Of a stretch of DNA of 64,000 nucleotides, positions 4,464-58,513 are shown piece by piece. The notes beneath the pieces were generated by a model. The model was not told the DNA's origin, ran no database searches, and saw nothing but the letters and a program-made list of their open reading frames with translations. The position numbers and the translations under genes are program-made. The stretch is from contig OY970342.1 in assembly GCA_963717505.1 (NCBI GenBank), forward strand, positions 2,592,001 through 2,656,000, in the 5' to 3' direction. Source of the stretch: Candidatus Eiseniibacteriota bacterium. Lineage in GTDB: Bacteria; Eisenbacteria; RBG-16-71-46. How positions within the stretch are numbered: position 1 is the stretch's first letter; each line of letters starts with the position of its first letter.

Positions 4464-5711
4464 GTGACTCGGATCGTCCTGTTGGCCGCGACGAAGACCT
4501 ACCGGGCCGGTGCGTTCCTGGAAGCCGCCCAGGGCCTCGGAGTCGACGTGACCGTGGGCTCGGACCGCCCGCAAGCCCTCGAAGCGCTGAATCCGGCCGG
4601 GCATCTGCTGCTGAATCCGGGGGACGCTGCGGCTTCCGGCCGAAGCGTGGCCGCATGGGGTCGCACGCATCGGGTGGCGGCCGTGCTCGCTGCCGATGAC
4701 GACCTGGCGCTGGTGGCGGCCCATGCGGCCGCCGAATTGGGATTGCCCCACCATTCGGTCCGCGCGGTGAGCACGGCAAGAGACAAACGGCTGATGCGCG
4801 GGGTGCTCGCGCGCGCCGGCCGGCCGGGTCCCTGGTATCGCGGCTTCGAGCTCGATCACGATCCGGCCGACGCGGCGCGCCGCGTCGACTACCCATGCGT
4901 GATCAAGCCCGTGGATCTGGGGGCCAGTCGAGGCGTGATTCGCGCGAATCATCCGGGGGAGTTTGAGGCCGCCTTCACGCGATGCGTGCGGATTGCCGCC
5001 GATTCGGGTTCCCTCGGCCTGCTCGCCGAACAGTACCTGCCCGGCGACGAGGTGGCGCTCGAGGGGTTCGTTCACCACGGACGGCTCGAGGTCCTCGCGC
5101 TCTTCGACAAGCCCGATCCGCTGGCGGGCCCGTTCTTCGAAGAGTCGATCTACGTGACGCCCTCGCGGCATCCGGATCGGATCGTGAGCGAGGTGGTGGC
5201 AGAGGCGACAGCGTGTGTGACCGCACTCGGTCTCGATCACGGGCCGGTGCACGCCGAACTGCGGATCGACCAGGGGGTCGCCACGCTGGTGGAGATTGCT
5301 CCGCGTTCGATCGGGGGGTTATGCTCGCGAGCGCTGCGGTTCGCGGGTGGTCTTTCACTGGAGTCGGCCCTGCTGCGTTACCTGCTGGGGGCGGCCCCCG
5401 GTTCGCTGTCCCGCGAGGCGCTGGCGGCGGGCGTGATGATGATCCCGGTGCCGGCCTCAGGAACCCTGAAGACCGTGCGCGGCGTCGAGCAGGCGCGGCG
5501 GGTCGATGGGATCGAGGACATTCGGATCACGATTCCGGTCGGCGACGAGGTCGTGGCGCTGCCCGAAGGCTCCCGCTATCTCGGGTTCGTCTTCGCGCGC
5601 GGCGACCACCCGGATCTGGTGGAAGCGGCCTTGCGGGCGGCGCACGCACGGCTCGAGTTCGACATACGGCCGATCGATGCGTCACCTGCGGTCGCCATGA
5701 GGACCAAATGA
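4464..5711 (+). CDS. ATP-grasp domain protein (L-amino-acid ligase-like)
   Basis: RDKRLMR, YPCVIKPVDLGASRGVIRA, EQYLPGDEVALEG, HAELRI...EIAPRSIGG and a C-terminal LAL-type domain (RYLGFVFARG). Confidence 0.9.
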   Translation: MTRIVLLAATKTYRAGAFLEAAQGLGVDVTVGSDRPQALEALNPAGHLLLNPGDAAASGRSVAAWGRTHRVAAVLAADDDLALVAAHAAAELGLPHHSVRAVSTARDKRLMRGVLARAGRPGPWYRGFELDHDPADAARRVDYPCVIKPVDLGASRGVIRANHPGEFEAAFTRCVRIAADSGSLGLLAEQYLPGDEVALEGFVHHGRLEVLALFDKPDPLAGPFFEESIYVTPSRHPDRIVSEVVAEATACVTALGLDHGPVHAELRIDQGVATLVEIAPRSIGGLCSRALRFAGGLSLESALLRYLLGAAPGSLSREALAAGVMMIPVPASGTLKTVRGVEQARRVDGIEDIRITIPVGDEVVALPEGSRYLGFVFARGDHPDLVEAALRAAHARLEFDIRPIDASPAVAMRTK

Positions 5712-6304
5712 TCACGATCACCGAGTTGGCTCAGGAGAGAATCGCCGCGTTCATGAAGGCCGAGAACCGCCCCAATCTCGCGCTGCGCTTCGCGGTCGAG
5801 GGACGAGGTCCGGGCGGATTCATGTATCGGCTCGCCTTCGTCGATGCCGCCGAACAGGCCGCCGACGATCGGGTGGTCGACGTCGGTCCGTTCCAGGTCC
5901 TGGTCGATGCGCGGAGCGTCGAGAGCCTCACGGGAGTGACGCTCGATTTCGTCGAGGGTCCGAACCAGAGCGGTTTCCGCATCGACAACCCGAACCCGCT
6001 GTGGACCGACTCGGTGGCGCTCGCGGTTCAGAAGGTGTTGGACGAGGAGATCAACCCGGCCGTGGCCACGCACGGGGGCTGGGTGGCGCTGCTCGAGGTC
6101 CGCGACGGAGTCGCCTACGTCCAGCTCGGCGGCGGCTGCCAGGGCTGCGGCATGGTCGACGTGACCCTGCGCCAGGGCATCGAGGTTCGGTTGCGCGAAG
6201 TGGTTCCCCAGGTGCGCGAGGTGGTGGACACCACCGATCATGCGGGGGGCGCCAACCCCTACTATCGACCGTCCAAGGGCGGCGGCGCGTCGCCGTACTC
6301 ATGA
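5708..6304 (+). CDS. nfuA: Fe-S cluster carrier NfuA (degenerate IscA-like domain + NifU C-terminal domain)
   Basis: MITITELAQERI...GFRIDNPN, then INPAVATHGGWVALL...LGGGCQGCGMVDVTLRQGIE...DTTDHAGGANPYY. ATGA overlaps at both ends. Confidence 0.92.
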   Translation: MITITELAQERIAAFMKAENRPNLALRFAVEGRGPGGFMYRLAFVDAAEQAADDRVVDVGPFQVLVDARSVESLTGVTLDFVEGPNQSGFRIDNPNPLWTDSVALAVQKVLDEEINPAVATHGGWVALLEVRDGVAYVQLGGGCQGCGMVDVTLRQGIEVRLREVVPQVREVVDTTDHAGGANPYYRPSKGGGASPYS

Positions 6305-7803
6305 ACGTCGAAGCGCCGGCCGCGGTTGCCGGCGCGACACGCCGGGTCCGGGTCGTTCTGCTCTCGACCTACGACCTGGGCCGCGCCCCGTTCGGCCTGG
6401 CATCACCTGCGGCCTGGCTGACCGACGCCGATTGCGATGTGCGAGTGAACGATCTCGCGGTCGAAGCCCTCGACGAAGAGGCGGTGCGATCGGCCGACCT
6501 GATCGCGTTCCATCTGCCGATGCACACGGCGACCCGTCTGGCGGTCGCGCGGCTGCCGCACCTCAAGGAGTTGAATCCACGGGCGCGTCTGTGTGCCTAT
6601 GGACTGTACGCGGCACTCAACGAAGAGCACCTTCGCTCGCTCGGCGTGGCGGACGTGCTGGGCGGCGAATTCGAAGCCAGCCTGGTCGAAGTGGCGCGCC
6701 AGCTCGGTGCGCCGGGCCTCGAGGACTCCGTCGCCGAGGGGGCGAGGGACCTGCCATCCGCTCCTCCGAGCCCCGGCGCGGACTCCGCCGCGCCGGCCAT
6801 GCCTCGCCTCCGTTTTCGGGCGCCCGCCCGCCACCTGCTGCCTTCGCCCGAAGCCTACGCACATCTGCATCTGCCGGATGGTACGCAACGTGTGGTGGGC
6901 TACACCGAGTCGACTCGTGGATGTCGCCATCGTTGCCGCCACTGCCCGGTGGTTCCGGTCTACCAGGGGCGAGTGCGCGTGGTTCAGCGGGAGGTGGTGC
7001 TCGAAGATGTGCGCCGCCAGGTCGCACGCGGGGCCCGCCATGTGACGTTTGGCGATCCCGATTTCCTGAACGGTCCGGGACATACGCTGCCTCTGGTCCG
7101 CGCGCTGCACGCCGAGCATCCGGACGTGAGCTGGGACGCGACGATCAAGATCGAACACCTGGTGCGACACGCCGCACTCCTGCCGGAGCTGGCGGCTCTC
7201 GGCTGCATCCTGATCACCAGTGCCGCGGAGTCCGTGGACGATCGGATCCTCGCGCGTCTCGAAAAGGGCCACACGCGTGCTGACTTCGAAAACGCCGCGC
7301 GACAGGTGCGGAACGCCGGGATCACGCTCCAGCCGACCTTCGTCGCCTTTACGCCGTGGACCACTCCCGAAGGGTGGTCGTCGCTGCTTGCCGCGATCGC
7401 CGATATGGATCTGGTCGAGCACGTCGCGCCGATCCAGCTTGCGATCCGTCTGCTGATTCCCGCGCGGTCACGACTGCTCGAGCTGGATGAGGTTCGCCGG
7501 CTGGCGGGGGCCTTCGACGGCGAGGCGCTGGTGTACCGGTGGCAGCATCCCGACCCGCGGGTGGACGCTCTGCAGCGGGACGCCGAGTCTCTGGCGGGTG
7601 AGCTGGCGCGGGAGCGCGCCCCTCGAACCGAGTCGTACGCTCGGTTGTGGGCGCTGGCCGAGCGCTTCGCGACGGCCGAGGATCGCGACCGCGTGGCGCG
7701 CGCGGCGTCGTATCGGCGGCCGCCGGTGCCCCACCTGACCGAGCCCTGGTACTGCTGAGCGGAGCCTCTCGTGGAGCCGGCGGCTCCGCTCGGGTCGATC
7801 TAG
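6301..7803 (+). CDS. CUAEP-tail radical SAM protein with B12-binding-like N-terminal domain; probable selenoprotein (UGA 7756-7758 = Sec)
   Basis: TRGCRHRCRHCP (CxxxCxxC). C-terminus PHLTEPWYC-TGA-AEPLVEPAAPLGSI-TAG(7801-7803) matches the known CUAEP/CCAEP-tail family motif. Without readthrough the CDS ends at 7758. Confidence 0.88.
7757..7791 (+). promoter_or_regulatory. Candidate bacterial SECIS hairpin immediately 3' of the in-frame UGA
   Basis: GAGCGGAGCC (7757-7766) is the reverse complement of GGCTCCGCTC (7782-7791). The inner CTC-GTG-GAG mini-stem places GU in the apical loop. Confidence 0.65.
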
Positions 7804-10800
7804 AAGCCCGGCTGGAAGCTGAACTGCCAGTACCAGCCCTTCTGCGGGCGGTCGTTGGGATGAACCAGATCCATCTCGGCGATCAGGAAGCCGAACAAGT
7901 TCATACGCATCGCGACTCCGTGGCTGCTGACGACGTTCTGCTGGCCGTTCCGATAGGTCGGATCGTCGCCCATGCCCCATGCCGAACCGACATCGAAGAA
8001 CGCCGCCAGTTCGACCGGCGGCATCATCGCGCTGCGCAGCACCCCGAGCGGGCCGAACACCGGCAGTCGGGCCTCGACGTTGGCCACGGCCAAGCGGCTG
8101 CCGAACAGGCGATCCCACGACTCGCACGGACCGAACCCGGTCGGGTCCTCGCACTCGCTGACCCGGAAGGACTCCTGGTCGTATCCGCGCACCAGGCTCG
8201 GGTAGCCGAGGAACAGGGAGCTCATCAGCGGGGACTCCGCGTCGGGACCATAACGGCCAAAGGTCAGAGCCCTGCCCGCCAGGGTCAGCGGCCGCATCGG
8301 CATCACGTAGTGCCGAAGGTCGAGCAGGAAGCTGTTGTAGACCAGGTCGCCGGCATAGACATCGAGCTCGATGCGCCCGCGGCTGCCGAGGACCGGGCTC
8401 GTGCCGCCAAACAACGAATTGTCGTGGACCAGGGCAACGATCCCGACCCCCATGTCGAGCGCCTCCGGATCGGCGTAGAAGCCGCCGGTGGTCTCGCTGA
8501 CCAGACGGCCGGAGCCGTCGTAGAGGCGCGTCGTCAACTCGCTCTCGAACCCGACACTGCGGAATCCGCCGGCGAACTCGATGCGCCGAATGCGGTCGAA
8601 GGGATAGGCCACGGTCCCGAGCGCGCGACGCTCGACCTGCCAGATGAGCGCGACGTCCTCCTGGGTGCCCTGCGAGCCATCGGGAAGCTGGACGACGTTG
8701 TACTCCAGGCCTCGGGTCAGATACGGGACCTGGCTCAACTCGACGCCCCAGTTCCAGCGCCGCCTCAGATTCCGATAGTCGAGGACCGCGGCGACGTTGT
8801 TCAGGAAGTTGCCGCCGTCCGAACTGATCTCCAGATAGGTGGCGAGATTGTGATCGCCGAGCATGTCGCTCCAGTAGAGTGTGGCGCCGCCGCCGCCCGA
8901 CACGCTGCCGCCACCGACGCCAAAGCCGATGCCCACCTGGGACACCTTGTCGAGTGACAGCGAGGGGCGATAACCCGTCTGCTCGAATCCGGTGGTGTCG
9001 ACCAGTCCCTCTTCGGGGTCTTCGAGCATTGATTGGACCTCCCCGCGCTCCGAAGTGATCGGCTGCATCCGGGTGCGGAAGTCCACGGTGTCGGTAGGCG
9101 CACTACGCGCATACGAGGGCGATCCGGCGAACGGCGGATCCTGGACGTCGTTCGGATCATTGAGGGCCTGCTCGCCGGCCGGCGGCAGGCCGATGTCCAG
9201 CGATTCGGGGAGGGCGCGAACGGTATTGGTCACCGCGAAATCGGGATAGTCGGGTGGCAGGATCCAGGCGGCCAGCGAGTCCGCTCCGAACACCAGCGGC
9301 TGACCTCTGGTCGACAACGAGTCCAGGGCGAAGATCGAATAGGCCCCGTTCTCGTAGGCCGCGAATACCATCCGATCGCCGGTGCGCGACACCGAGATGG
9401 CCGGGCTGGTGGCGGTCAGGCCGCTGACGCCGGTGCCGACGTTCGTGATCTGCGTCCAGGTCTGCGACTCGAGTTCGAGCCGGACCAGGTTCGGGATCCC
9501 GCCCGGCGCGGCGATGCAGTAGAGCGCGCGGCCGTCGGGCGACCACTGCGGGTTCAGGTGCTTGGAATTCGGCAACGACGGCAGCAGATGGACCGAACCA
9601 TCGGGAATGTCGAGCAAGGCCAGTCGCAGGTGGCCATGCGACAGGTTCTCAATCGGAGCGAATCGCTCGGTGATGAACGCGATGCTCTTGCCGTCCGGCG
9701 ACCAGGCCGGTTGCAGGTCGGCGGGCAGGTCGTTCGTCCACCGACGCACGCTTCCGGAGTGCAGATCGATCGAGAACAAGTCGGTGTGACCGCCCGCGAG
9801 TGCCGAGAACGCGATGGAACGGCCGTCGGGCGACCACGACAGCGTCCAGATCTCGCCGATTTCGCGCACGGAATATTGGCGGCGCGTCTGACCCGAGGCC
9901 ACGTCGATCACCTGGATCGCCGACCGCCCGTTGCGGACGGTCGCGAACGCGAACTGGCGGTTGTCGGGGCTCCATGAACCCGCGCCGCTGACGAACTGAA
10001 GGCTCTGCAGGTGGGGATCCACCGCGGTGCGCGTCACGCGCCTGCTGATTCGGCCGGTGTGCGCGTCGGCGAGATACAACTCGATCGAGAACAGATCCCG
10101 CTCCGAGAGGAACATCACCTGACGTCCGTCGGGGCTGAGCGAGGGCGCCAGGTTGTACACGCCGCGATCGCCGGTGGAGCCGATCAGGGGCTTGACCAGC
10201 GCGGTCGGCGGCTGCCCACCGACACGGTCGGACTGGGCGCGCAGCGCCCGATGCCAGTCCCGAGCCAGCGAATCGGTCGGCACCCCGAGGACTGCCGAGA
10301 AGGCCTGTTCCATCTCGATGCCCCTCGAGACCGCCTTGAGCAGTTCTCCGATCGCGCGATCGCCCCAGCGCTCGCCGACGTAGGACCACAGGGAGTGGCC
10401 CCAGCGATACGGGAAGTAGCGGTACTCGGCCAGGTGCGCGAGGTCGGGCAGTTCCTTGCCGCTGCGCACGGCGTCGCGCATCCACATCGAGGTGTGCGGA
10501 TCGATCGGGCCAATGGTCAGGTACTCCGCCATGCCTTCGATGAACCACAACGGCATGCGCATCGCGACCGATCCGCCGACCCGCGAACGACCCATGATGT
10601 CGTACTGGAACGCATGAACCAGCTCGTGGCCGACGACGTGGTCGGTCTCGGCCAGCGAACCCGAGAAGGGCAGCACGATGCGCCGCTTGACCGACTCGGT
10701 GACACCGCCGGTGCTCTCGTCCAGGTCGCCCTGAATCGCGTTGGTCTGTTCGAAGTGCGGGTGGCTGGCATACATGATCAGCGGCTGCCGCCCGGCCAGC

Positions 10801-11051
10801 TCGTGATTCAGCACTCGGGACAGGCGCGTGTACCAGCGTTCGGCCATCCGTGCGGCGGTCGGGATGGCGTCCGACTCCTCGCTGTAGTAGTAGACGTCGA
10901 AGTGTTCGGTCTTGAGGATGTCGAAATCGAAGGTCCGGTAGTTGACCTTGTTCCGGCCGAAATACTGGGCCGAGGCCGGGTTCGATCCGAGCACGAGCAA
11001 GACGGCGGCTGTCGCCAGCGGCCCGAGCTTGCGTGGCTGGCAAAAGGACAT
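7800..11051 (-). CDS. Outer-membrane protein: gluzincin-like peptidase domain + TolB/PD40 beta-propeller + Omp85/BamA-type barrel
   Basis: Signal peptide ending ASA-QYFGRNKV, HELVH...WFIEGMAEY, several (W)SPDG repeats, LVRGY barrel motif, AFFDVGSAW, terminal Phe. Confidence 0.85.
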   Translation of the reverse strand: MSFCQPRKLGPLATAAVLLVLGSNPASAQYFGRNKVNYRTFDFDILKTEHFDVYYYSEESDAIPTAARMAERWYTRLSRVLNHELAGRQPLIMYASHPHFEQTNAIQGDLDESTGGVTESVKRRIVLPFSGSLAETDHVVGHELVHAFQYDIMGRSRVGGSVAMRMPLWFIEGMAEYLTIGPIDPHTSMWMRDAVRSGKELPDLAHLAEYRYFPYRWGHSLWSYVGERWGDRAIGELLKAVSRGIEMEQAFSAVLGVPTDSLARDWHRALRAQSDRVGGQPPTALVKPLIGSTGDRGVYNLAPSLSPDGRQVMFLSERDLFSIELYLADAHTGRISRRVTRTAVDPHLQSLQFVSGAGSWSPDNRQFAFATVRNGRSAIQVIDVASGQTRRQYSVREIGEIWTLSWSPDGRSIAFSALAGGHTDLFSIDLHSGSVRRWTNDLPADLQPAWSPDGKSIAFITERFAPIENLSHGHLRLALLDIPDGSVHLLPSLPNSKHLNPQWSPDGRALYCIAAPGGIPNLVRLELESQTWTQITNVGTGVSGLTATSPAISVSRTGDRMVFAAYENGAYSIFALDSLSTRGQPLVFGADSLAAWILPPDYPDFAVTNTVRALPESLDIGLPPAGEQALNDPNDVQDPPFAGSPSYARSAPTDTVDFRTRMQPITSERGEVQSMLEDPEEGLVDTTGFEQTGYRPSLSLDKVSQVGIGFGVGGGSVSGGGGATLYWSDMLGDHNLATYLEISSDGGNFLNNVAAVLDYRNLRRRWNWGVELSQVPYLTRGLEYNVVQLPDGSQGTQEDVALIWQVERRALGTVAYPFDRIRRIEFAGGFRSVGFESELTTRLYDGSGRLVSETTGGFYADPEALDMGVGIVALVHDNSLFGGTSPVLGSRGRIELDVYAGDLVYNSFLLDLRHYVMPMRPLTLAGRALTFGRYGPDAESPLMSSLFLGYPSLVRGYDQESFRVSECEDPTGFGPCESWDRLFGSRLAVANVEARLPVFGPLGVLRSAMMPPVELAAFFDVGSAWGMGDDPTYRNGQQNVVSSHGVAMRMNLFGFLIAEMDLVHPNDRPQKGWYWQFSFQPGF

Positions 11052-11183
11052 GCGATTCCTCAGTAATCGACGCGCCCGGCCCCGAGTGGAATTTTTACGT
11101 CGGTTCCAGGCCGCCGGCCGCGCCTTTGGATTCCGCCGCTCCCGAAGAGGCTCTGGTATTGTAACTCGCGGGATGTCATCTCG

Positions 11184-11981
11184 ATGACAATGATGCCAGC
11201 ATCGGGGCCGGGAGGCGAGCCGGCCGCCGGTGACGCGCCGGCCCTGGAGTTTTCGGCAGTTCGCAAGCGCTTCGGCACGTTCGTCGCGGTCGACGGCGTC
11301 ACGTTCGAAGTGCCGGCGGGCCGGTGTACGGCGCTGCTCGGCCCGAGCGGCTGTGGCAAGTCGACCCTGCTTCGCCTGGCCCTCGGGCTCCTCAAGCCGG
11401 ACGAGGGTGCCGTGCGATTCGCAGGCCGCGACACGAGTGAACCCGGAATGCGAACGCGAATGGGCTACGTCATTCAGGACGGTGGCCTGTTCCCTCACCT
11501 GACCGCCGCCCAGAATCTCGGCCTCAAGACGCGAGACCTAGGCTGGCCGGCGGCGCGGATCGCACGGCGTATCGACGAAGTCGCCGGGATCGCCCGATTC
11601 GCCCGCGAGCTGCTCGGTCGCTATCCGCTGCAGCTCTCGGGCGGGCAGCGGCAGCGCGTCGGCCTGATGCGCGCCCTGATGCTGGATCCCGAGCTGCTGC
11701 TGCTCGACGAGCCGCTCGCAGCACTCGATCCGATCGTCCGCGCGGGCCTCCAAGAGGAGTTGCGGCGCATCTTTCGAGAGTTGAGGAAGACCGTGGTGTT
11801 CGTGACTCACGACCTGGTCGAGGCCGCCTACGTCGCCGACGAGATCGTGCTGCTCCGTGCCGGCCGGCTGGTGCAGCGCGGGCGGTGGCGGGACTTGAAG
11901 GACCAGCCGGCGGAGGATTTCGTTCGCGAGTTCGTCCGCGCCCAGCGCACGCTGCACGACGTCGAGGGAATCCCACAGTGA
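11184..11981 (+). CDS. Osmoprotectant/betaine-type ABC transporter ATP-binding protein
   Basis: GPSGCGKST, MGYVIQDGGLFPHLT, LSGGQRQRV, LLLDEP, FVTHD. Confidence 0.9.
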   Translation: MTMMPASGPGGEPAAGDAPALEFSAVRKRFGTFVAVDGVTFEVPAGRCTALLGPSGCGKSTLLRLALGLLKPDEGAVRFAGRDTSEPGMRTRMGYVIQDGGLFPHLTAAQNLGLKTRDLGWPAARIARRIDEVAGIARFARELLGRYPLQLSGGQRQRVGLMRALMLDPELLLLDEPLAALDPIVRAGLQEELRRIFRELRKTVVFVTHDLVEAAYVADEIVLLRAGRLVQRGRWRDLKDQPAEDFVREFVRAQRTLHDVEGIPQ

Positions 11982-13513
11982 GGGGCCGTCGCGCCGGGTT
12001 CCTGGCCGCGATTCTCGTGTTGGCCGGACTCCTGGGCGCCGGCCCGGCGCCGCGAACGCTGGTCATCGGCTCCAAGGCGTTCCCGGAATCGTGGATCCTG
12101 GGCGAGAGCATGGCGACGCTGGCTCGATCCTCCGGTCCTTCGGTCGAGCACCGCGCCAACCTGGGCGGGACCGAGATCGTTTACGCGGCGTTGTTGAGCG
12201 GCGCTGTCGACGCGTATCCCGAGTACACGGGAACCATTGCCGAAGTGATCCTCAAGAGCCCGGGCCGTCCCTCGTTGGCGGAGCTGAGAACCGGGCTCGC
12301 ACCGCAGGGGATCGGGGTGTCCGAGCCTCTGGGCTTCAACGACGGGTACGCCCTGGCGGTGACCGCGAGGACCCGGGATCGGCTGAATCTGCGCACGATC
12401 TCCGATCTCGCACGCCACCCGGAACTCGAGCTCGGGGTCACCCACGAGTTCCTGGGCCGACGCGACGGTTGGCCCGGTCTGGCCCCGGCGTACGGTCTTG
12501 GTGCGCACGCGGTGCGTGGCATCCAGCACGAGCTGGCCTACGAGGCCCTGGCGTCGGGTCGAGTGGACGTGATCGACATCTACACGACCGATGCGCAGAT
12601 CGAGCGAATGAAGCTCGCGGTGCTCGAGGACGACCTCGGCTTCTTTCCGCGCTACGACGCCGTCATCCTCTACCGCCTCGACCTCGAGCGCGAAGCAGCG
12701 TCCGCACTGTCCAGCATCCGACAGCTGGAAGGCCGGATCGACGAGAAGCGGATGATTCGCGCGAACGCGTGCGTGGTCCTCGAGGGGCAACCGACGTCCT
12801 CGGCGGCGGCCGGGCTGTTGGCCGATATCGGGCTCGTGGGTGAGCCGCCCACGGGAGAGGACACTCCCGGACTCGGAGAGCGAACGACGGTCGAGGTCAT
12901 CACCGCCAACACGGTTCAGCATCTGAAGCTGGTCGCGATCTCGCTCACCGGCGCGGTGCTCGCGGGCGTCCCGCTCGGGATCCTCGCGACTCGTGCTCCC
13001 TGGCTCGCGACACTGACGCTCGCGGGCGCCGGGATGCTGCAGACCATTCCGTCGCTGGCGCTGCTCGCATTCCTCATCCCATGGCTCGGGGTCGGTGCAG
13101 GTCCCGCGCTGGTGGCACTCTTCCTCTACAGCCTTCTGCCGATCGTGCGGAACACGTTCGTCGGCCTGACGTCGATCTCTCCCGGACTCGAGGAATCGGC
13201 GCGAGCCCTGGCGCTTCGCTGGCGCACCGATCTCTGGGGCGTGCGCTTGCCATTGGCCTCGCCCGCGATCATGGCGGGAATCAAGATCAGCGCCGTGATC
13301 AACGTCGGCACGGCCACGTTGGCAGCGCTCATCGGCGCGGGGGGCCTCGGGGATCCGATCCTGGCCGGAATTCAGCTCCGGCGGCCGGACCTCATCCTAC
13401 AGGGCGCGGTCCCGGCGGCGGCGCTTGCACTTGTGATCCAATGGGGGTTCGATGCCCTCGACCGGCTCGTCATCCCGCGCGGGCTCAGGCTGCCGCCGGA
13501 GCCGGGGGCATGA
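11978..13513 (+). CDS. Fused betaine-type ABC substrate-binding protein + permease (OsmF/OpuAC domain, then ProW-like domain)
   Basis: IGSKAFPESWILGE, YPEYTGT, LGFNDGYALAV, DIYTTDA, FFPRYDAV, then TM region QTIPSLALLA...ESARAL. GTG start overlaps the ATPase stop. Confidence 0.9.
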   Translation: MRGRRAGFLAAILVLAGLLGAGPAPRTLVIGSKAFPESWILGESMATLARSSGPSVEHRANLGGTEIVYAALLSGAVDAYPEYTGTIAEVILKSPGRPSLAELRTGLAPQGIGVSEPLGFNDGYALAVTARTRDRLNLRTISDLARHPELELGVTHEFLGRRDGWPGLAPAYGLGAHAVRGIQHELAYEALASGRVDVIDIYTTDAQIERMKLAVLEDDLGFFPRYDAVILYRLDLEREAASALSSIRQLEGRIDEKRMIRANACVVLEGQPTSSAAAGLLADIGLVGEPPTGEDTPGLGERTTVEVITANTVQHLKLVAISLTGAVLAGVPLGILATRAPWLATLTLAGAGMLQTIPSLALLAFLIPWLGVGAGPALVALFLYSLLPIVRNTFVGLTSISPGLEESARALALRWRTDLWGVRLPLASPAIMAGIKISAVINVGTATLAALIGAGGLGDPILAGIQLRRPDLILQGAVPAAALALVIQWGFDALDRLVIPRGLRLPPEPGA

Positions 13514-13636
13514 TGCGTCGGACTCGAGGTGGCGGAAGGGACCGCCGAGAACGAGCGGGCCCGGGGCGCTCGGAACCCTTCCGGTTCGCGGTCTGCCGCG
13601 AATCGGTTCGGGCATGGAATACCTGAGGAGCGACAC

Positions 13637-15643
13637 ATGAGACGGACGATCGCGTTGATTTGCCTGGCCGGGTTACTCACGGCGCGCGGGGTGCCGGCCG
13701 CCGAAACGGCGGCGGGCGACAGCGTGGCGATGACGGTTCCCGAAGTGGTCGTCAACGCCCTGCGCGGCAGGGACGTGCTGCGCAACGTTCCGGCGCCGGC
13801 CTTCGTCGTCTCGCGTGCCGACCTGACGCGGTCCGGCGCCGAGCGCGTCGCCACGGTGCTCGGCCGGCTCCCCGGGCTCCACGGCTACGGACAGTCGGGG
13901 ATCGGCGAGGCGCGGGTTCTGGATCCCCGCGGTTTCACCGCGAACGGCGAGAGCTCCTACCTCAAGCTGCTGGTGAACGGCCAGGACGTCCGCGGCGTCG
14001 AGAACGGCGACGTGGACTGGGACTGGGTGATGACCGACGACGTCGAGCGCCTCGAGATCGTCCAGGGTTCCGGCGCCTGGCTTTACGGCGACGGCACTGA
14101 GGGCGGGGTGGTCAACGTCGTGCGGCGCGACCCGGCGTCGGGCTTCCAGTCGGATGGCATGCTGAGGGCCGGCAGCTTCGGCCTCGTCTCCGGCAACCTG
14201 CAAGCTTCCGGCGGCGGGGAGGCGTTCAGGGGCGGCGTCCGCGGCAGCCTCCGCAACGCCGACGGCTATCGGGACCGCAGCCAGGAGACGGTGGTCTCCG
14301 GCGGCGCCGACGGCACCTGGAACCTGTCGGATCGGACCCGGCTCACGCTCGACGTCAGCGTGCTCGACACCCGGCACGAGGAACCCGGGGCGTTGACCGC
14401 GGACCAGCTGCGCACCGATCGCGACCAGGCCGACACGCAGACCGATTACGTCCACGCGCGCCGCATGGCGACGGGCCTCCACCTGGTGCATCACACGGAG
14501 GCGGAGGCGGAGTGGCTGTTCATGCCCTACGTGCGCACCGAGGACGTGGACCAGATCCGGACGCTCTACATTCCCGACTTCTCGGGTGGGTTCTTCCCCG
14601 AGACCAAGTCGCATCCGACGGAGGCCGTGACGTTCGGGGCCGAGGCCGGGTGGCGGGGACTCATGCGCGCGGTCGCGCTCAGCGCCGGGATCCAGGCCGA
14701 GCGGGCGCGGCTGCAGAGCGACCACCGGAGCACGGCCGACGGCACGCTCGAGGCGAGCGGCACCGGGTGGCGCGACGCCTGGTCGGGGTTCGCCAGCGCG
14801 CGCGTGCCGGTGGGCGGGCGCGCGAGCTTCAGGCTCGGCCTGCGCGGCGACGTCATCCGGGTCGGGCCGCTCGAGATCCCGGGGGCGAACGGGATCCCGT
14901 CCCGCACCCTGTCGGCCGCGAGCCCCTTCGTGGCGCTGAGCCGCGAGGTCGGCGAACGCGGCACGGTCTGGGCCAGCTTCAGCACGGCGTTCCGGGTGCC
15001 GACGCTGAACCAGCTGTTCGATCAGCGGGCGCTCGGCGGGGCGGTCGTGATCTCGAATCCGAGCCTCGATCCGCAGCGCTCGCTCAACTTCGAGGTCGGC
15101 GGACGGTGGGGTGGCGCGGGCGGCCGCTCGGCCACGGTCGCCGTCTACTCCTCGCAGGTCACGGACGAGATCGACTTCGACCTCGGGACGTTCCAGTACG
15201 CCAACATCGGCGAGAGTTGGCATCGCGGCGTCGAGGCGTCCGTCGTTCAGCCGCTGGGCCGCCAGTTGACGGCGACAGCGACCGGCGCGTGGACCCCGAC
15301 CACGATCGAGGGCGGCGCCGACGACGGCAACCAGATCAACGCCGTGCCCGAGGGCATGGCCTATGGGGCGCTGCGCTGGGCGCCCGGGGACCGCTGGTCG
15401 CTGGAGGGCGGCGTGCGGTACACCGGCCGGCAGTTCCTCGACAAGGCGAACCAGAGCACGCTTCCGGACTACGCGACCCTCGAGCTGGCGGGATCGGTCC
15501 GGGCGGCACGCGCACGGCTCACGCTACGGATCGCGAACCTGCTCGACAACGAGTACCAGGAATCCGGTTACATCGACCCGCGGGGTGCCGAGTACTTCCC
15601 GGCGGCGGGGCGGTCGGCGTCGCTCGGGCTGTCGCTCGACTAG
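13637..15643 (+). CDS. TonB-dependent receptor
   Basis: TonB box EVVVNA, plug ERLEIVQGSGAWLYGDGTEGGVVNVV, FRVPTLNQLF, NPSLDPQRS, IANLLDNEY...GRSASLGLSLD. RBS GAGGAG. Confidence 0.9.
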   Translation: MRRTIALICLAGLLTARGVPAAETAAGDSVAMTVPEVVVNALRGRDVLRNVPAPAFVVSRADLTRSGAERVATVLGRLPGLHGYGQSGIGEARVLDPRGFTANGESSYLKLLVNGQDVRGVENGDVDWDWVMTDDVERLEIVQGSGAWLYGDGTEGGVVNVVRRDPASGFQSDGMLRAGSFGLVSGNLQASGGGEAFRGGVRGSLRNADGYRDRSQETVVSGGADGTWNLSDRTRLTLDVSVLDTRHEEPGALTADQLRTDRDQADTQTDYVHARRMATGLHLVHHTEAEAEWLFMPYVRTEDVDQIRTLYIPDFSGGFFPETKSHPTEAVTFGAEAGWRGLMRAVALSAGIQAERARLQSDHRSTADGTLEASGTGWRDAWSGFASARVPVGGRASFRLGLRGDVIRVGPLEIPGANGIPSRTLSAASPFVALSREVGERGTVWASFSTAFRVPTLNQLFDQRALGGAVVISNPSLDPQRSLNFEVGGRWGGAGGRSATVAVYSSQVTDEIDFDLGTFQYANIGESWHRGVEASVVQPLGRQLTATATGAWTPTTIEGGADDGNQINAVPEGMAYGALRWAPGDRWSLEGGVRYTGRQFLDKANQSTLPDYATLELAGSVRAARARLTLRIANLLDNEYQESGYIDPRGAEYFPAAGRSASLGLSLD

Positions 15644-15694
15644 ACCGGCACGATCGCGGGAGAACGGTGTCGCGGGGCGCCGTGACGAGCGGGC

Positions 15695-16669
15695 TCACTC
15701 CGCCACGTAGAGCGTTTGGGCGAACGACCACTCCGCATCCAGCCACTGCCCCTCGATCCGGAACGCCAATCGTTCAGCGAAGCCGGCGAGGTCGGAGTCG
15801 CGGAACTTGTGCGAGCTTTCGGTCCAGATCGTCTCGCCCTCGTCGAATTCGACGACCTGTCGTGCGGCCGGGACGCGCACCGTCTGGTGTTGGAGCGATG
15901 CGAGATGCATCTCGATTCGGCGCTCGTGCGCGTTCCAGCGGACCACGTGCCGGAAGCGGGACAGGATGAAGTCGCCGCCCAGCTCGCGATTGATGCGTAC
16001 CAGCAGATTGCGGTTGAAGGCCGCGGTGACCCCGGCCGGGTCGTCGTAGGCCAGGACTAGGCGCTCGACCTCCTTCTCCATGTCGGTGGCCAGGAGCAGG
16101 CGATCCCCGGGTTGCAGCAACCGCCGCACTTCGCCCAGGAACGCGGAGCCCGCCTCGCGGTCGAAATTGCCGATCGTGCTGCCGAGGAAGAGAACGAGCA
16201 GGGCCTGATCCGGCTGCCGGCGCGCGACCGCCGCGCGCAGGCCGTCGAGGTACTCGGCCTCGAAGCCGACGATGGTCACCGAATCGATGCGATCCAGCTC
16301 GCGTCCGGCCTGGGTCAGCGCCGACATCGAGATGTCGATCGGGCAATAGGTCACGGGACCGCGCCGCGCCAGGACCTCGAGCAGCGTGCGGGTGTTTCGC
16401 GCGCTGCCGCTCCCCAGCTCGGCCACGACTGCGGACCCGGGGACCGGGCTCAGGATCTCTTCGGCGTGGCGGTGAATCAGACGCTCGCCAGCCCGGGTCA
16501 GACCGTACTCCGGCAGGAACGTGATCGCCTCGAACAGCGCCGACCCGACCGCGTCGTACAGATACTTGCTCGGTAGCTCCTTCTGGCCGGCGCGGGTCAG
16601 ACCTGCGCGGACGTCGTCGGCGAAGCGCACCGAGGGCGCACTGGCGTCGAGCGAGATGGTGAGCGCCAC
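15695..16669 (-). CDS. egtD: L-histidine N-alpha-methyltransferase EgtD
   Basis: QKELPSKYLYDAVGSALFEAITFLPEYGLTR, ELGSGS, FLGSTIGNF, AYDDPAGVTAAFNRN, RIEMHL, IWTESSHKF. Confidence 0.95.
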   Translation of the reverse strand: MALTISLDASAPSVRFADDVRAGLTRAGQKELPSKYLYDAVGSALFEAITFLPEYGLTRAGERLIHRHAEEILSPVPGSAVVAELGSGSARNTRTLLEVLARRGPVTYCPIDISMSALTQAGRELDRIDSVTIVGFEAEYLDGLRAAVARRQPDQALLVLFLGSTIGNFDREAGSAFLGEVRRLLQPGDRLLLATDMEKEVERLVLAYDDPAGVTAAFNRNLLVRINRELGGDFILSRFRHVVRWNAHERRIEMHLASLQHQTVRVPAARQVVEFDEGETIWTESSHKFRDSDLAGFAERLAFRIEGQWLDAEWSFAQTLYVAE

Positions 16670-16672
16670 GGT

Positions 16673-17977
16673 CTAGCGCTCCACCACCCGGAACTTGGCG
16701 TAGACGAACGGATAGTGCGGTTGGAACCAGTTGCGGAAGGAACGGCGCAACATGCAGGCGGCGGTGCGCGGGGAGCCGCCCTTCATGACGTAGTGTTTGC
16801 CATCGAAGAAGTTCGCCGAATACCCGGGGTAGAAGGCGTAGGGCTGGAATCCGGCAAACGGAGCGAACACGGTTTCGGTCCACTCCCAGCCGTTGCCCAC
16901 CAGGTCGGCCACCCCGAACGCACTGTCCCCGGCCGGATAGGCCCCGACCGGAGCCGGATCCCAGTGCGCGAAATCGAAGTTCCCTCGCGACCGATCGGGC
17001 GGCTGCTCACCCCACGGGAACTCGCGCTCGGTCCCTTCCGGGGTTCCGAACGCCGCTCGGTGGTACTCGGCTTCGGTCGGCAGGGAGCCGCCGCGCCAGC
17101 GGACGAATGCTCGCGCCTCGGCGTGGCTCGAATAGACGGGTTCGTCCGGAGCGAGCGGGCGATCGCCGAACATTCCCTGCCAGAGCCAGCCCGAGCCGCT
17201 CGGCTTCCAAAAGCGTGGATAAGTTATCCGCTGCCGTTCGCGCCACGCCCAGGCCTCGTCGTCCCATAGCTCGGAACGGGAGTAGCCGCCGTCCTCTATG
17301 AACGCCAGGTACTCGCCATTCGAGACACTGTCGGCATCGATGACGAACGCCGGCACGTCGACCGAGTGCTCGAGGAACTCGTTGTCCCATCCGAACCCCT
17401 CGCCGCGACCACGGCCCAGAGTCGCCGCTCCGGCCGGAATGCGCACTGCGGGTCGCCGGGTGCGCCCCGAGGGTATCGAGGTCTCGACCTGCGCGTGCTT
17501 CCGGTCGGCCGGCATCTGATGAAGCATGTAGGCGAGTGTTTCGACGTGCATCAATCGGTGCTCGATCGCGGTTTCGAGCCGGACGGCCGATTCCGGGTTC
17601 GCGCCGGTGTCGTCACCGACGCATTCGTCGATCCTGCGTCGAACCGTCGCCCGGTAGTCGTACACGATGGACAAGTCGGGCCAGGCGGAGGGCGGATCCG
17701 AAGGCAGCGCGCCATCGACCGGATCGATTCCGAACGCGAACAACCGGTCGAGGGCGTCGTCGAACGGCTCGACCCGGAATCCGTCGCGGGCGATCAGGTT
17801 CCAGTCGAAGGCCTCGAGATGACCGATGTAGAAAACGATGCGGTGCCGCTCCGGGATCGGGCGCTCGTAGAGCGCTTCGCGACGCACGCACTGAAAGAGC
17901 CGGTCGGAGGACTCGCGGGCCTCGGCCAGTCGGCCCGCGAGCGCGGCTGGGGGTTCGGTGGAGCGGACAACGGTCAT
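16673..17977 (-). CDS. egtB: Sulfoxide synthase, EgtB/OvoA family (DinB-like + FGE-sulfatase domains)
   Basis: ERPIPERHRIVFYIGHLEAF, iron motif HRLMHVETL, LPTEAEY, DLVGNGWEWT...FQPYAFYPGYSANFFDGKHYVMKGGS...RRSFRNWF. Adjacent to egtD. Confidence 0.85.
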   Translation of the reverse strand: MTVVRSTEPPAALAGRLAEARESSDRLFQCVRREALYERPIPERHRIVFYIGHLEAFDWNLIARDGFRVEPFDDALDRLFAFGIDPVDGALPSDPPSAWPDLSIVYDYRATVRRRIDECVGDDTGANPESAVRLETAIEHRLMHVETLAYMLHQMPADRKHAQVETSIPSGRTRRPAVRIPAGAATLGRGRGEGFGWDNEFLEHSVDVPAFVIDADSVSNGEYLAFIEDGGYSRSELWDDEAWAWRERQRITYPRFWKPSGSGWLWQGMFGDRPLAPDEPVYSSHAEARAFVRWRGGSLPTEAEYHRAAFGTPEGTEREFPWGEQPPDRSRGNFDFAHWDPAPVGAYPAGDSAFGVADLVGNGWEWTETVFAPFAGFQPYAFYPGYSANFFDGKHYVMKGGSPRTAACMLRRSFRNWFQPHYPFVYAKFRVVER

Positions 17978-18110
17978 CGCAGGGCCCCCTTCATCGGCTC
18001 GGTCGTACGCCGGTGCCATTGCGGCTCGAACGAGCCGGAGATGGTCCGGATGGCCAGAAGCGCCTGAAGCCTACCACCCGATCCCGGGAGCGGGGAGGGT
18101 GCTGGACGAA

Positions 18111-22493: not shown

Positions 22494-25271
22494 GTGACCG
22501 ACCCGCTCGACGCCATCCACCAGGCCAACGCGGCCTACATCGACCGCCTTTACGACCGCTTTCGGGAGGATCCGACCTCGGTCCCGCCCGACTGGGCCGT
22601 GTTCTTTGCCGGCTTCGAGTTGGGCGGCGCACGCGGGCTCGCTCCTGTCGCCGGCGTAACCACCGGCGGCGTCATCGGGCTCGTGCACGCGTACCGGGAA
22701 TTCGGCCACCGGATCGCCCGGATCGACCCGCTGAGCGAGCCCCCGCCCGAGCGCAGGCAGCTCGATCCCGCGGCCCATGGCCTGTCCCCGGCCGACCTGG
22801 ACCGGCCGCTGGGGAACCACCCGTTCCGCGGGCCCGTGAACGGTGTGGTGCGCGACTTGATCACGGCCCTGCGCGACACCTACTGCGGCTCGATCGGCGT
22901 CGAGTTCATGGGGATCCCCGAGCGCGAGCGACGCGAATGGCTCCAGGAGCGCATGGAGTCGGTCCGCAACCGTCCCGTCTTCGAGCCCGCGGCGCGTGTC
23001 AACCTGCTGCAGGGACTGCGGGTCGCCGACGCCTTCGAGCAGTTCCTGCACGTGAAGTACGTAGGACAGAAACGATTCTCGCTCGAAGGCGCCGCCACGC
23101 TGATTCCGATGCTCGAGACTCTGGTCGACGCGGCCGCGGCGATCGGAGTCCAGCAGATCGTGATCGGAATGCCCCATCGTGGCCGGCTCAACGTCCTGGC
23201 CAACGTCCTGCACAAGCCACTCGATGTGATCTTCGGCGAGTTCGAGGCGAATTTCGCGCCCGGTGATGTGCAGGGCCACGGGGACGTAAAGTACCACCTC
23301 GGCTATTCGACGCTGCGCACCACCGCCGACGGCCGCGCGATCGATCTGGATCTCAACTTCAATCCCAGCCACCTCGAGTTCGTGAATCCGGTGGTCCTCG
23401 GCTCGATGCGCGCGCGCCAGGACCACATGGGGGATTCGCGAGCGATCGCGCGGTATTCCGGTGCTGATCCATGGCGACGCCGCCTTCTCGGGCGAGGGCA
23501 TCGTGCCCGAGACCCTGGTGCTCGCTCAGCTGCCCGCCTATCGCACCGGCGGAACCATTCACATCCTGGTCAACAACCAGATCGGCTTCACCACCTCGCC
23601 CTCGGACGTCCGCGCCTACGCGCTACTGCACCGACATGGCCCGCGCGATCGACGCCCCGGTGTTCCACGTCAATGGCGACGATCCCGAAGCCGCGGTCCA
23701 TGCCGTGCGTCTGGCGGTCGCGTATCGCGACCAATTCAAATCGGACGCGATCGTGGATCTGATCTGCTATCGCAAACACGGCCACAACGAGATGGACGAT
23801 CCGACCTTCACCCAGCCGGTGATGTATCGAGCCATTGCGAGCCATGCCCCGGCATCGCGCCGCTACGCCGAGCGCCTGCAGGCCGAGGGCGTCCTCGAGC
23901 CGGCCACGCTCGAGGCGATGGATTCGGAGATCGACGAGCGGCTCCAGGCGGCGCATCGCCGAGCGCGCGCCACGCCGGGCACCAGCGAAGTGCCGCTGGG
24001 CGGAGCCTGGAACGGCCTCGAATGGGCCGGAGACGATTGGACGGCCGACACCTCGGTGGCTCGCGATCGGATCCACTCGGTGCTCGCCGGCATCACCCGG
24101 GTCCCCGAGGGTTTTCACGTCCATCCGCGCGCGGCGCGATTGCTCGAAGAGCGCGCCGCGATGGTGGCCCAGGACCGGATCGACTGGGGCTGCGGCGAGG
24201 CGCTGGCGCTCGGAACGCTGCTGATGGACGGATACAACGTGCGCCTGAGCGGGCAGGACACGGGACGCGGCACGTTCAGTCACCGCCATGCGGTCCTGCA
24301 CGACCACGAGAACGGGGCGCGCTGGGTGCCGCTCCAGCACCTGTCCGCCAACCAGGGCCGATTCGAGATCATCGACACCATGCTGAGCGAGGCGGCGGTC
24401 CTCGGGTTCGAATACGGCTACACGACCGCCGATCCCAACACGCTGGTGCTGTGGGAGGCTCAGTTCGGCGACTTCACCAACGTGGCTCAGGTGATCGTCG
24501 ACCAGTTTCTCGCCAGCGCCGAGTCGAAGTGGCGGCGGATGTCGGGTCTGGTGCTCCTGCTGCCCCACGGCTACGAGGGCCAGGGGCCTGAGCACTCGAG
24601 CGCCCGACTCGAGCGGTTCCTCGAGCTGTGCGCCGACGGCAATCTCCAGGTGTGCAATCTGACCACGCCGGCGCAGTTGTTCCACGCGCTGCGGCGCCAG
24701 CATACACCGCCGGTTCCGCAAGCCGCTGGTGCTGATGAGCCCGAAGAGCCTGCTGCGGCACAAGCGCGCGGTCTCGCCGGTCGCCGAGTTCATCGGCGGC
24801 AGCTTCCGCAACCTGATCGACGATGCCGGCGTCGGGGATCCGGAGTCGGTGCGCTCCGTGCTCCTGGTGTCCGGGAAGCTCTACTACGCGCTCGAGGAGG
24901 CACGCGAAGAGTCGGGCGTCCAGGGAGGCGGCGATCGTCCGGGTCGAGCAGCTCTATCCGTTCCCGCGACAGGAGCTGGCGAACCTGCTCAAACGCTACC
25001 CGCGTGCGCGCGAGGTGCGCTGGGTGCAGGAGGAGCCGGCCAACATGGGCGGATGGCGCAGTCTGCGCCACCGCATCGAATCGATCGTGCCGGCGGGGAT
25101 GTCCCTCAAGCTGGTCTCGCGTCCGGCGTCGCCGACGCCGGCGACCGGGTACTATCCCCGGCACGTCGAGGAGGAGCGATTGGTGATCGAACGGGCTCTG
25201 GCTGCGTCAGATGTGCACGCCGTCACCCCTGCGTCCCGGCGCGCCGGCCGGCCAACGGAGTGGGCGGATGA
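22494..25271 (+). CDS. sucA: 2-oxoglutarate dehydrogenase E1, broken by at least 4 frameshifts (probably sequencing indels; 3' end approximate)
   Basis: Consecutive fragments in shifting frames: [82 protein letters not shown]. Confidence 0.9.
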
Positions 25272-26613
25272 TGGTCGACGTCCAGGTTCCGCGACTTGCC
25301 GAGTCGATCTCCGAGGCCGTGCTGGTCGAGTGGCTGCAGCCTGACGGGGCCACCGTCCGCGCCGACGAGCCGATCGCCACACTCGAAACCGACAAGGCGG
25401 CGGTGGAAATCGCGGCGAGTTCCGCCGGCGTTCTGCGCCACGCTCGCAAGGTGGGCGAACGCGTGACGGTGGGCGATGTGCTGGCGCGGATCGAGGCCGG
25501 AGGGCCGGCCGAAGCCACGACTCAGGCCGGGCGGGCGCGCACCGGTGCCGCGTCCGCGGGAGCGGGCACGAGTCCGACGGTCGCCCCACCTGCACCCGCG
25601 CGCGAGGCGACCGCCCCCGCGTTGCCCGCGCGTCGCGACGCCTCGAGCAGCGGCAACGGCGGAACGCCGCCACTGTCCCCGGCGGTGCGGCGCCTGGTCG
25701 AGGAACACGGACTCGAACCCGGAGCCGTGCCCGGCACCGGCCAAGGCGGACGGTTGCTCAAGGAGGACGTGCTTCGCCATCTGGCGTCCGCCACTCCCGA
25801 ATCGGCTTCCGGGCCCGTGGCGCCTGCGGCTTCGACTCCCGTGATGCCGGCGGCCCCGGCCGCGACTCCGGCTTCGGCACGTGTCCCGGCGCCGGTATCG
25901 GCGGCCGGCGAAGAGGACGACGAAGTCGTGCCGATGAGCCGTATCCGGCAGCGCATCGCCGAGCGACTGGTGCAGGCGCAGCACACCGCCGCGATCCTGA
26001 CCACGTTCAACGAGATCGACATGACCGCGGTTCTGGATCTGCGCGCGCGCTATCGGAGCGGTTCGAGAAACAGCACGGCGTGCGCCTCGGGTTCATGAGC
26101 TTCTTCACGCGTGCCTGCGTCCTGGCGTTTCAGGACGTCCCCGCGCTCAATGCCGAGATCCGCGGCACCGACCTCGTGTTGCATCGCCGGGTTCACATGG
26201 GGGTCGCGGTCGGCACCGACCGCGAGGCCTGGTGGTGCCGGTGGTCCGCGACGCGCACCGGCGGACGTTCGCCGGGATCGAGCGCGAGGTCGAGCGGCTC
26301 GCGAGCCGGGCGCGCGACGGTTCCGCTGACCCTCGACGAGCTGACCGGCGGCACCTTCACGATCTCGAACGGTGGTGTCTACGGCTCGCTGCTCTCGACG
26401 CCGATCCTGAATCCGCCGCAGAGCGGGATCCTCGGCATGCACAAGATCGAGAAGCGCCCGATCGCGGTGAACGACGAGGTCGTGGTGCGGCCGATGATGT
26501 ACGTCGCGTTGTCGTACGACCACCGGATCGTGGACGGCGAGCAGGCGGTGACGTTCCTGGTGCGCGTCAAGGAGCGCCTCGAGGATCCCGAGCGGATGCT
26601 GTTCGAATTGTGA
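25268..26613 (+). CDS. sucB: Dihydrolipoyllysine succinyltransferase E2 (frameshifted)
   Basis: Lipoyl motif [21 protein letters not shown]...[12 protein letters not shown], catalytic [25 protein letters not shown]...SYDHRIVDG. About 3 frame changes near 26055-26320. Confidence 0.92.
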
Positions 26614-28034
26614 GCCCCCAGAACGATCCAGTCCGCGAGTCCGGGCCGTTCGACCTGGTCGTGATCGGCTCCGGCCCCGGGGGCTACGTCGCCGCGATCC
26701 GCGCGGCGCAGCTCGGGCTGCTCGACCGCCTGCGTCGAGAAGCTATCCGTCGCTCGGCGGCACCTGCCTCAACGTCGGCTGCATTCCGAGCAAGGCGCTG
26801 CTCGACTCGAGCGAGCACTTCGCGCACGCGCGCCACGGACTCGCGGCCCACGGCGTCAAAGCCACGGTCGAGCTCGACCTGGCGCGCATGATGGCGCGCA
26901 AGGACGAAGTGGTGCGGGACCTGACCCGCGGGGTCGAAGGCTTGTTCCGCAAGCACGGAGTCACCTGGCTTCGCGGCAACGCGCGGATCGCGGCGGCCGG
27001 CCAGGTCGAGGTCACGGGCGCCGAGGGGGCTCGGACGCATTCCACGCGACGCATCCTGATCGCCACCGGGAGCAAGCCGATCGCCCTGCCGGGAATCGCG
27101 TACGACGATCGGCGGATCGTGCACTCGACCGACGCGCTCGCGCTGCCCGAGGTGCCGCCGCGGCTCGCTGGTCATCGGCGCCGGCGCGATCGGGCTCGAG
27201 CTGGGCTCGGTGTGGCTGCGGCTCGGCAGCGAGGTGACCGTCTACGAGCTGGCCGATCGCATCGTGCCCGGAATGGATGCCGCTTCGGGCAAGATCCTCC
27301 ACCGAGTGCTGGCGAAACAGGGCATGAAGTTCGTGCTGGGCGCCGCGGCGAAAGGCGCGAGGGACGCAGGCAGGGTCGTCCGCTTCACCTACGAGCAGGG
27401 GGGTGCGGCGCACGAGGTCGAGGCCGACGTCCTGCTGGTCGCGGTCGGTCGCCGGCCGTACACCGACGGCCTGGGCGCCGCCGAGGTCGGGGTTGCGTTC
27501 GACGAACGCGGCCGGGTCCGCGTCGACGAGCACTATCGCACCAGCGTTCCCGGGATCTGCGCGATCGGCGACGTCATCGCCGGCCCGATGCTGGCGCACA
27601 AGGCCGAGGAGGAAGGCATCGCCGCGGTCGAGCGCATGGCGGGCCAAGCCGGGCACGTCGCCTACGAATGCATCCCCAACGTCGTCTACACGTGGCCGGA
27701 GTTCGCGAGCGTGGGATGGTCGGCCGAGCAGGCGCGCGAGCGCGGGCACACGGTGACGGTCGGGATCTTTCCGTTCGCGGCCAACGGTCGCGCGCGGGCG
27801 ATGGAAGAGAAGGATGGACAGGTGTCGATCGTGGCCGACGCCGCCACCGACCGCATTCTGGGCGCCCACATCGTCGGGCCGCGCGCGAGCGACCTGATCG
27901 CCGAATTGGCGGTGGCCATGGAGTTCGGCGCGAGCGCCGAGGACATCGCCCGCTCGGTGCACGCGCACCCGACTTTGGCCGAAGCCGTGAAGGAGGCGGC
28001 GCTGGCGGTGGCCAAGCGCACGATTCATGTCTGA
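26610..28034 (+). CDS. lpdA: Dihydrolipoyl dehydrogenase E3 (frameshifted)
   Basis: [35 protein letters not shown] (in a shifted frame), [20 protein letters not shown]. Confidence 0.92.
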
Positions 28035-57392: not shown

Positions 57393-57393
57393 C

Positions 57394-58500: not shown

Positions 58501-58513
58501 CCGTGTCCGGCCC

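Follow-up and report, generated by a model that had tools for sequence, protein, structure and literature searches.

A CUAEP-tail radical SAM gene with a very probable selenocysteine codon, a conserved SECIS-like hairpin, and kinship to ArsL

The locus described here raises two linked questions: whether a TGA near the 3' end of a radical SAM gene terminates the protein or encodes selenocysteine (Sec), and what such an enzyme might do with the Cys-Sec pair that readthrough would place in its tail. The gene occupies 6301..7803 on the forward strand of the window, the whole 64,000-nucleotide stretch of DNA analysed. Its frame runs from ATG 6301 through PWYC (ending at 7755) to TGA 7756-7758, continues as AEPLVEPAAPLGSI, and closes with TAG 7801-7803, for a predicted selenoprotein of 500 aa with Sec at residue 486. 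The domain order is a Rossmann-type N-domain, a radical SAM barrel, a helical C-domain, and the EPWYC-U-AEP tail. The [4Fe-4S] motif CxxxCxxC (C208-C212-C215, 6922..6945, forward strand) contains a family-specific residue, His214, and the vicinal pair Cys485 (TGC) and Sec486 (TGA) is encoded at 7753..7758 on the same strand. As the initial annotation stated, the final TAG lies within a CTAG (7800..7803) that also holds the stop of a convergent TolB-like/Omp85 gene (7800-11498, reverse strand). Truncation by gene callers, likewise claimed there, is seen in the protein-collection copy (P0002), which has 485 aa and ends at the UGA.

Sequence comparison assigns the gene to the catalogued family NF040546 of NCBIfam (CUAEP/CCAEP-tail radical SAM (seleno)protein), a sister family of ArsL, with a score of 616 bits over residues 18-494, the cutoff being 500. 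The tail, scored with C in place of U, raises the total by 17 bits from 599, and both elements of the family signature, the C-(C/U)-A-E-P tail and the CxxxCxxC motif, are present. The runner-up is the ArsL model NF040542 with 270 bits (cutoff 450); all remaining families score 43 bits or less. The initial annotation had named a family in which Cys and Sec alternate at this position, and the homologue alignment proposed there bears it out. Among 49 GTDB loci taken, 47 extend to the motif (two are cut by contig ends); the codon is TGC in 29, TGT in 13 and TGA in 5 (42 TGY in all), and AEP comes next in 47 of 47. At E 1e-20 or better the family numbers at least 8000 members. Among the best 119 other homologues of the 8000 scored, 10 continue CCAEP and 109 stop right after W(Y/F)C; the latter are known as proteins alone, so that a TGA at their ends is not shown. 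The 150 listed representatives of 50% clusters divide into 41 with CC, 38 whose last residue is C, 68 devoid of the motif, many of them fragments, and 3 spurious matches. Only C208, C212, C215, C485 and position 486 are invariant as Cys or Sec. A quick tree puts the protein in a group, with support 95, with four database proteins, of which one is labelled Candidatus Eisenbacteria; ArsL has only a provisional position there, on a long branch. Two loci labelled Halobacteria (L002:3265-4653 and L003:10007-11395) group at 100% with the gammaproteobacterial L004 and have the same neighbours, and are probably mis-binned contigs.

The TGA at 7756-7758 is very probably read through as a Sec codon, as the initial annotation proposed. 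AEP continues after the codon in every motif locus, TGA followed by AEP is rare (2 of 1282 TGA triplets in the 64-kb window), and a conserved hairpin follows the UGA. A genome-wide change of code (4/25) is not the explanation, since TGA is the ordinary stop of 30 of the 47 genes or gene fragments predicted for the window, a count that includes the radical SAM gene and its ATGA-coupled neighbours. Within the 64-kb window, no selA, selB, selC or selD was found.

The hairpin lies at 7771..7789 on the forward strand, with an 8-bp stem (7771-7778 with 7782-7789), a GGC loop at 7779-7781 and a folding energy of -14.4 kcal/mol. It begins 12 nt past the UGA, a spacing of 20 nt as the bSECIS criterion counts it. 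Counting the U of UGA as +1, the stem pairs +16..+23 with +27..+34. In six of six UGA genes it keeps 6-8 of 8 pairs, an invariant G at +24 and energies from -11.3 to -14.4 kcal/mol; the same register in 42 Cys genes averages -2.9 kcal/mol (best -8.8), with four pairs or fewer in 39 of the 42. This register ranks first of 609 scanned. Among the six UGA genes both sides change in 6 of 8 pairs, and no shuffle of 500 matches the covariation score, although the stem was derived from the same six sequences used to score it, and the Cys set comes mostly from two clades. An independent seventh UGA gene, found later in Thermomicrobium roseum, reads TGA-AEP and has 6 of 8 pairs, with a GUC loop at +24. 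The accessible text of PMC13188914 gives the bSECIS criteria as a loop of 3-9 nt, a stem of 4-16 bp, G(G/U) at the loop start, a distance of 16-37 nt from the UGA and an MFE of -7.5 or lower (PMC13188914). The hairpin agrees with each of them (3-nt GGC loop, 8 bp, 20 nt, -14.4 kcal/mol). Rfam returns no match across the window. Comparison among homologues thus establishes the hairpin as the element predicted to serve the UGA as a Sec codon.

The initial annotation had placed the signal in another structure, a 10-bp stem that starts at the UGA (7757..7791, forward strand) and uses the same 3' arm. That stem does fold, and there its claim ends: its folding does not exceed that of shuffled sequences (z -1.4, 21/200), it has no covariation among the six UGA genes (181 of 500 shuffles reach its score), and its GU stands 12 nt past the UGA, below the 16-37 nt consensus in the accessible text of PMC13188914. 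The conserved stem is the one at 7771-7789. On naked RNA the stem that starts at the UGA is the stabler of the two (-20.8 vs -14.4 kcal/mol) because GGAGCC is present twice in window positions 7759-7789, which lets the 3' arm pair either with the codons just past the UGA or inside the SECIS. With the first 9-15 nt masked, as they presumably would be by a ribosome on the UGA, that stem is lost and the conserved stem becomes the optimal fold, so the two alternative pairings could be a ribosome-dependent switch. A weaker alternative pairing occurs in other UGA genes also, and is partly forced by the AEP codons.

The closest guide to function is ArsL. ArsL and the window protein share 32% identity over 417 aligned positions (E 2e-73). 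The family alignment has 64 columns with conservation in 90 or more of 100 rows, and at 47 of these both of the ArsL-type proteins compared carry the family residue; the 17 unlike ArsL include H75, H214, H324, E481 and W483, and they count against an ArsL-like model. Past a 45-residue insert, the terminal CCLKC of ArsL aligns with C-U-A-E-P, its CC standing opposite C485-U486. A search of plasmids matched 37 records; among the 30 listed, one is annotated as the CUAEP/CCAEP family, and the remaining 29, at 31-34% identity, go by the names ArsL or RCCLKC-tail or, in one case, radical SAM domain protein. ArsL splits SAM into methylthioadenosine and an ACP radical; its tail holds no auxiliary cluster, and deletion of the tail keeps the Fe/S content and SAM cleavage and abolishes C-As formation (10.1101/2024.02.01.577332). 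A later study, in its accessible text, finds arsenic bound by the tail and proposes an electrophilic Fe-ACP species; citing Mauger et al., it also reports that changing single cysteines to Ala inactivates ArsL (10.64898/2026.04.29.721666). A review, in the part available, describes an 'MCCA' mutant as the most efficient with methylarsenic (PMC13598754); MCCA probably denotes Cys-Cys-Ala, i.e. loss of the third cysteine. The available parts of the cited ArsL texts do not define the residues that set C-gamma cleavage, and the 47 of 64 shared positions suggest that the window protein would also cleave the C-gamma-S bond of SAM for ACP transfer. The initial annotation proposed that the Cys-Sec pair binds a metal, metalloid or auxiliary cluster, a choice that narrows once the tails are aligned: the matching CC of ArsL binds arsenic and carries no auxiliary cluster. 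Arsenite itself is not established as the ligand, because the third ArsL cysteine is missing and no ars genes are recognised nearby.

The neighbourhood supplies further clues. Two forward-strand genes precede the radical SAM gene, and the three overlap in series at ATGA junctions. The first (4464..5711) encodes an ATP-grasp enzyme of L-amino-acid ligase type (ATPgrasp_N, ATP-grasp_4 and LAL_C2 domains; PDB 3vot, E 4e-33), and the second (5708..6304) an NfuA-type Fe-S carrier with A-type and NifU domains (best NCBIfam match NfuA, 117 bits, cutoff 269). An ATP-grasp partner accompanies the gene at 23 of the 49 loci, which come from Acidobacteriota, Chloroflexota and Pseudomonadota, and at 21 it lies no more than 300 nt downstream. 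The other 26 lack it (18 Arenicellales loci, L002-L004, L044, and four that end at a contig edge), as does the Thermomicrobium roseum locus within 8 kb. Besides NfuA in the window, an Fe-S-related gene is near 45 of the 49 loci, although these are not independent (about five lineages), two lie more than 5 kb away, and the figure is a raw one, uncorrected for background. In 18 loci an iscR-sufBCDSU-sufT operon ends with the gene, in 22 a GBBH_N protein precedes it, and YggX is near in 4 and SufE in 1. GBBH_N is PF06155, formerly DUF971, and may be linked to the Fe-S scaffold HCF101.

A scan of one representative from each of the 270 clusters that hold 787 predicted neighbour genes recognised no ArsM, ArsC, ArsR, Acr3/ArsB, ArsH or ArsI, whether at the 49 loci or in the window. 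Two sorts of candidate were rejected: a phosphatase at L039 scores as Wzb-type, not ArsC, and two glyoxalase-fold proteins have no ArsI match. Three apparent fusions of radical SAM and ATP-grasp proteins (P0123, P0125 and P0126) lack an in-frame WYC, and their junction peptides, when back-translated, yield a W-(Y/F)-C-(C/U)-A-E tail out of frame. They are therefore frameshift artefacts that support adjacency, not fusion, a check that covered three of six long matches (P0122 and P0124 were viewed only). The pairwise identities of the two partner proteins correlate with rho 0.88, which we do not take as co-evolution because most rows are close kin. An ATP-grasp enzyme common to ArsL-type and CUAEP loci was considered and dropped: the Priestia ArsL-type neighbour is only 22% identical, and the two plasmid ATP-grasp matches inspected are situated in unrelated clusters. 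No relevant match was found in the literature searched for arsinothricin together with ATP-grasp. The Priestia locus in question (L052:1471-2694, RCCLKC tail) has no annotated arsM within 5 kb and has a distantly related ATP-grasp gene of its own, at 22% to that of the window, a hint of possible ligation of ACP-arsenicals at that locus as well. In 18 betaproteobacterial loci the ATP-grasp gene is followed by a lineage-specific gene of the fructosamine-kinase family (in L008, at 12683-13561).

Elsewhere in the window, an EgtB-like gene (16673-18019, reverse strand) matches the OvoA, SenA (selenoneine synthase) and EgtB models at 242-247 bits, all below cutoff, and adjoins egtD, an OpuAC-type ABC transporter and a TonB receptor; the region 11190-18019 appears to be an ergothioneine-like synthesis and uptake cluster of ambiguous type. 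A cluster at 55441-61038 contains an FTR1 iron permease, two FtsX/MacB permeases, a rhodanese-methyltransferase fusion, and an ABC ATPase fused to an iron-repressor dimerisation domain. The genes sucA, sucB, lpdA and an RND permease (22494-28034 and 49699-53159) are each split across reading frames, probably by assembly indels (or as pseudogenes).

The proposal that we put forward, and to which we give about even weight, combines ArsL-like transfer of the ACP group to a soft atom held on Cys485-Sec486 with ATP-grasp amide ligation and cluster supply by NfuA. Its chemical steps, which we infer from a readthrough and a homology established by comparison, would run as follows. SAM would be cleaved in the fashion of ArsL, into methylthioadenosine and the ACP group; methylthioadenosine rather than 5'-deoxyadenosine is predicted because ArsL, the only close characterised relative, is described as the sole CxxxCxxC enzyme to release the ACP group. 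The C-terminal Cys-Sec pair would hold a soft acceptor atom and present it for formation of a C-X bond. This acceptor may be an organometalloid of the methylarsenite type or a sulfur or selenium atom, which we weigh about equally; with two ligands in place of the three of ArsL it would most likely be two-coordinate, and the neighbourhood argues against plain arsenite. The product would be an ACP-X amino acid, to which the neighbouring ATP-grasp ligase would probably join another amino acid, and NfuA would supply or repair the cluster of the radical SAM enzyme. Besides the 17 differing columns, several observations weigh against this model: no ars genes were recognised in the scan described above, Pro replaces the third arsenic-binding cysteine while single Cys-to-Ala changes reportedly inactivate ArsL, 26 of 49 loci lack the ATP-grasp gene, the Priestia ATP-grasp is only 22% identical, and the window shows no selABCD.

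NfuA also rebuilds the auxiliary cluster of LipA. The enzyme might instead insert sulfur or selenium as LipA, BioB or MiaB do, with a 5'-deoxyadenosyl radical and a Cys-Sec pair (with non-Cys ligands) that holds a sacrificial auxiliary cluster or persulfide, rebuilt by NfuA/Suf. We regard this as unlikely, though with a real chance of being right. The Fe-S genes near 45 loci (SufT, GBBH_N, YggX and SufE in the numbers given above) and NfuA in the window speak for it, as do five different Fe-S genes across about five lineages and the structural matches of the AlphaFold model (pLDDT 92.4; mean 74 in the block 481-490) to MiaB and RimO at Z 21-22. These two are only 14-18% identical, however, against 32% for ArsL, and the invariant Cys/Sec residues are limited to the CxxxCxxC motif and positions 485 and 486. 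The homologous ArsL tail, moreover, binds no cluster (10.1101/2024.02.01.577332), and the Fe-S loci carry the limits of independence, distance and background already stated.

A cobalamin-dependent radical SAM enzyme, methyltransferase or other, whose substrate is bound by the Cys-Sec tail, is improbable. It would fit a weak PF02310 match (23 bits, below the cutoff of 32), a family-specific PMH motif (M74, H75) of the Rossmann domain that ArsL replaces with L-F, and fold matches to OxsB, MgmA, TsrM and CysS (Z 23-24, rmsd 3.1-4.5 over 356-437 residues). The protein is only 13-19% identical to the cobalamin enzymes, however, no conserved cobalamin-gene neighbours are recognised at the loci, and ArsL, which shares the N-terminal domain, was reconstituted in vitro with cobalamin unmentioned (10.1101/2024.02.01.577332). 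Quite improbable, too, is a function identical to that of ArsL, a direct arsenite enzyme (hydroxyarsinothricin synthase) in which Sec offsets the lost third cysteine: the two are sister families with core and tail position in common, but 42 of 47 loci have a plain Cys-Cys with no third cysteine, arsM and other ars genes are not recognised nearby, and the NF040542 score falls far below its cutoff. Finally, that the UGA is a true stop or a sequencing error for TGC, and the hairpin a terminator between convergent genes, is highly improbable: several window genes lie in frameshifted pieces, Sec machinery is not seen in the 64-kb window and the long hairpin is the most stable naked-RNA fold, but the closest relatives (73% and 60% identical) likewise end at WYC, AEP is conserved past TGA and TGY alike, no terminator is called at the hairpin, and the hairpin tracks the UGA rather than gene orientation (in L006, which has the hairpin, the gene that begins at the hairpin edge runs in the same direction).

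NCBI already records the selenoprotein status of the family, so the gene alone is not new. Haft and Gwadz 2022 name the family once in the text available, as uncharacterised (10.1101/2022.07.06.499078), in agreement with the initial annotation, which knew of no characterised reaction. This was the sole mention of CUAEP or CCAEP found in a literature search that mostly excluded subscription journals. In the accessible portion of the 2026 selenoproteome review (PMC13188914), neither the accession NF040546 nor the motif name was found. The literature searched yielded nothing that joins ACP, selenocysteine, radical SAM and arsenic, and a protein atlas search gave nothing beyond the CUAEP/CCAEP family itself. 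New against the literature found are the SECIS position, now supported by covariation for an uncharacterised family, the homology of the tail to that of ArsL, and the ligase and Fe-S context; together they make the proposed reaction directly testable. More tentatively, the CUAEP/CCAEP proteins may be a large and widespread sister group of ArsL that performs the non-canonical ACP chemistry on a non-arsenic acceptor (for instance sulfur or selenium, by way of Fe-S/Suf and the Cys-Sec arm) and, with ATP-grasp, makes a small, so far undescribed ACP-chalcogen peptide connected with Fe-S assembly or repair, the arsenic chemistry of ArsL being a specialisation. Were the predicted release of methylthioadenosine borne out, non-canonical SAM cleavage would be far commoner than known, a new metabolite would await discovery, and most Sec-form database entries would lack their catalytic tail.

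Among characterised systems, ArsL is the nearest. The window protein resembles it in domain order, in overall identity, in the conserved positions counted above and in a vicinal pair at the aligned C-terminal site, and by inference works like it, yet its score, tail and context keep it out of the ArsL family. It scores 270 bits against the 450 of the NF040542 cutoff; where the RCCLKC tail of ArsL has three cysteines it has Sec for the second and Pro for the third; it carries the 45-residue insert ahead of the tail, and has His214 in the place of an ArsL Tyr. Both of the ArsL-type loci inspected have ars genes around them, as does the founding arsinothricin cluster in the accessible text of PMC8552651, whereas no arsM, arsQ or ars operon is recognised at the window locus, which has Fe-S and ATP-grasp neighbours instead. 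The family has a natural two-ligand form of the three-cysteine ArsL arm, and its ligase and Fe-S context recurs. Searches of the PDB turned up no structure of ArsL or of the CUAEP/CCAEP family. The best PDB sequence match is AprD4, which also matches the model in fold (Z 25.6, rmsd 3.8, 412 residues), and the Rossmann-domain radical SAM enzymes AprD4, OxsB, MgmA and TsrM are alike in overall fold but only 15-19% identical. By hand count AprD4 retains 12 of 28 family-conserved columns within residues 201-352, and lacks the other 16 of these ArsL/CUAEP signature residues. The ATP-grasp partner has the architecture of the L-amino acid ligases BL00235 and BacD but falls below every NCBIfam cutoff. 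From NF040546 itself the protein has no family-level difference; the NfuA gene beside it in the window was not seen at the other 49 loci.
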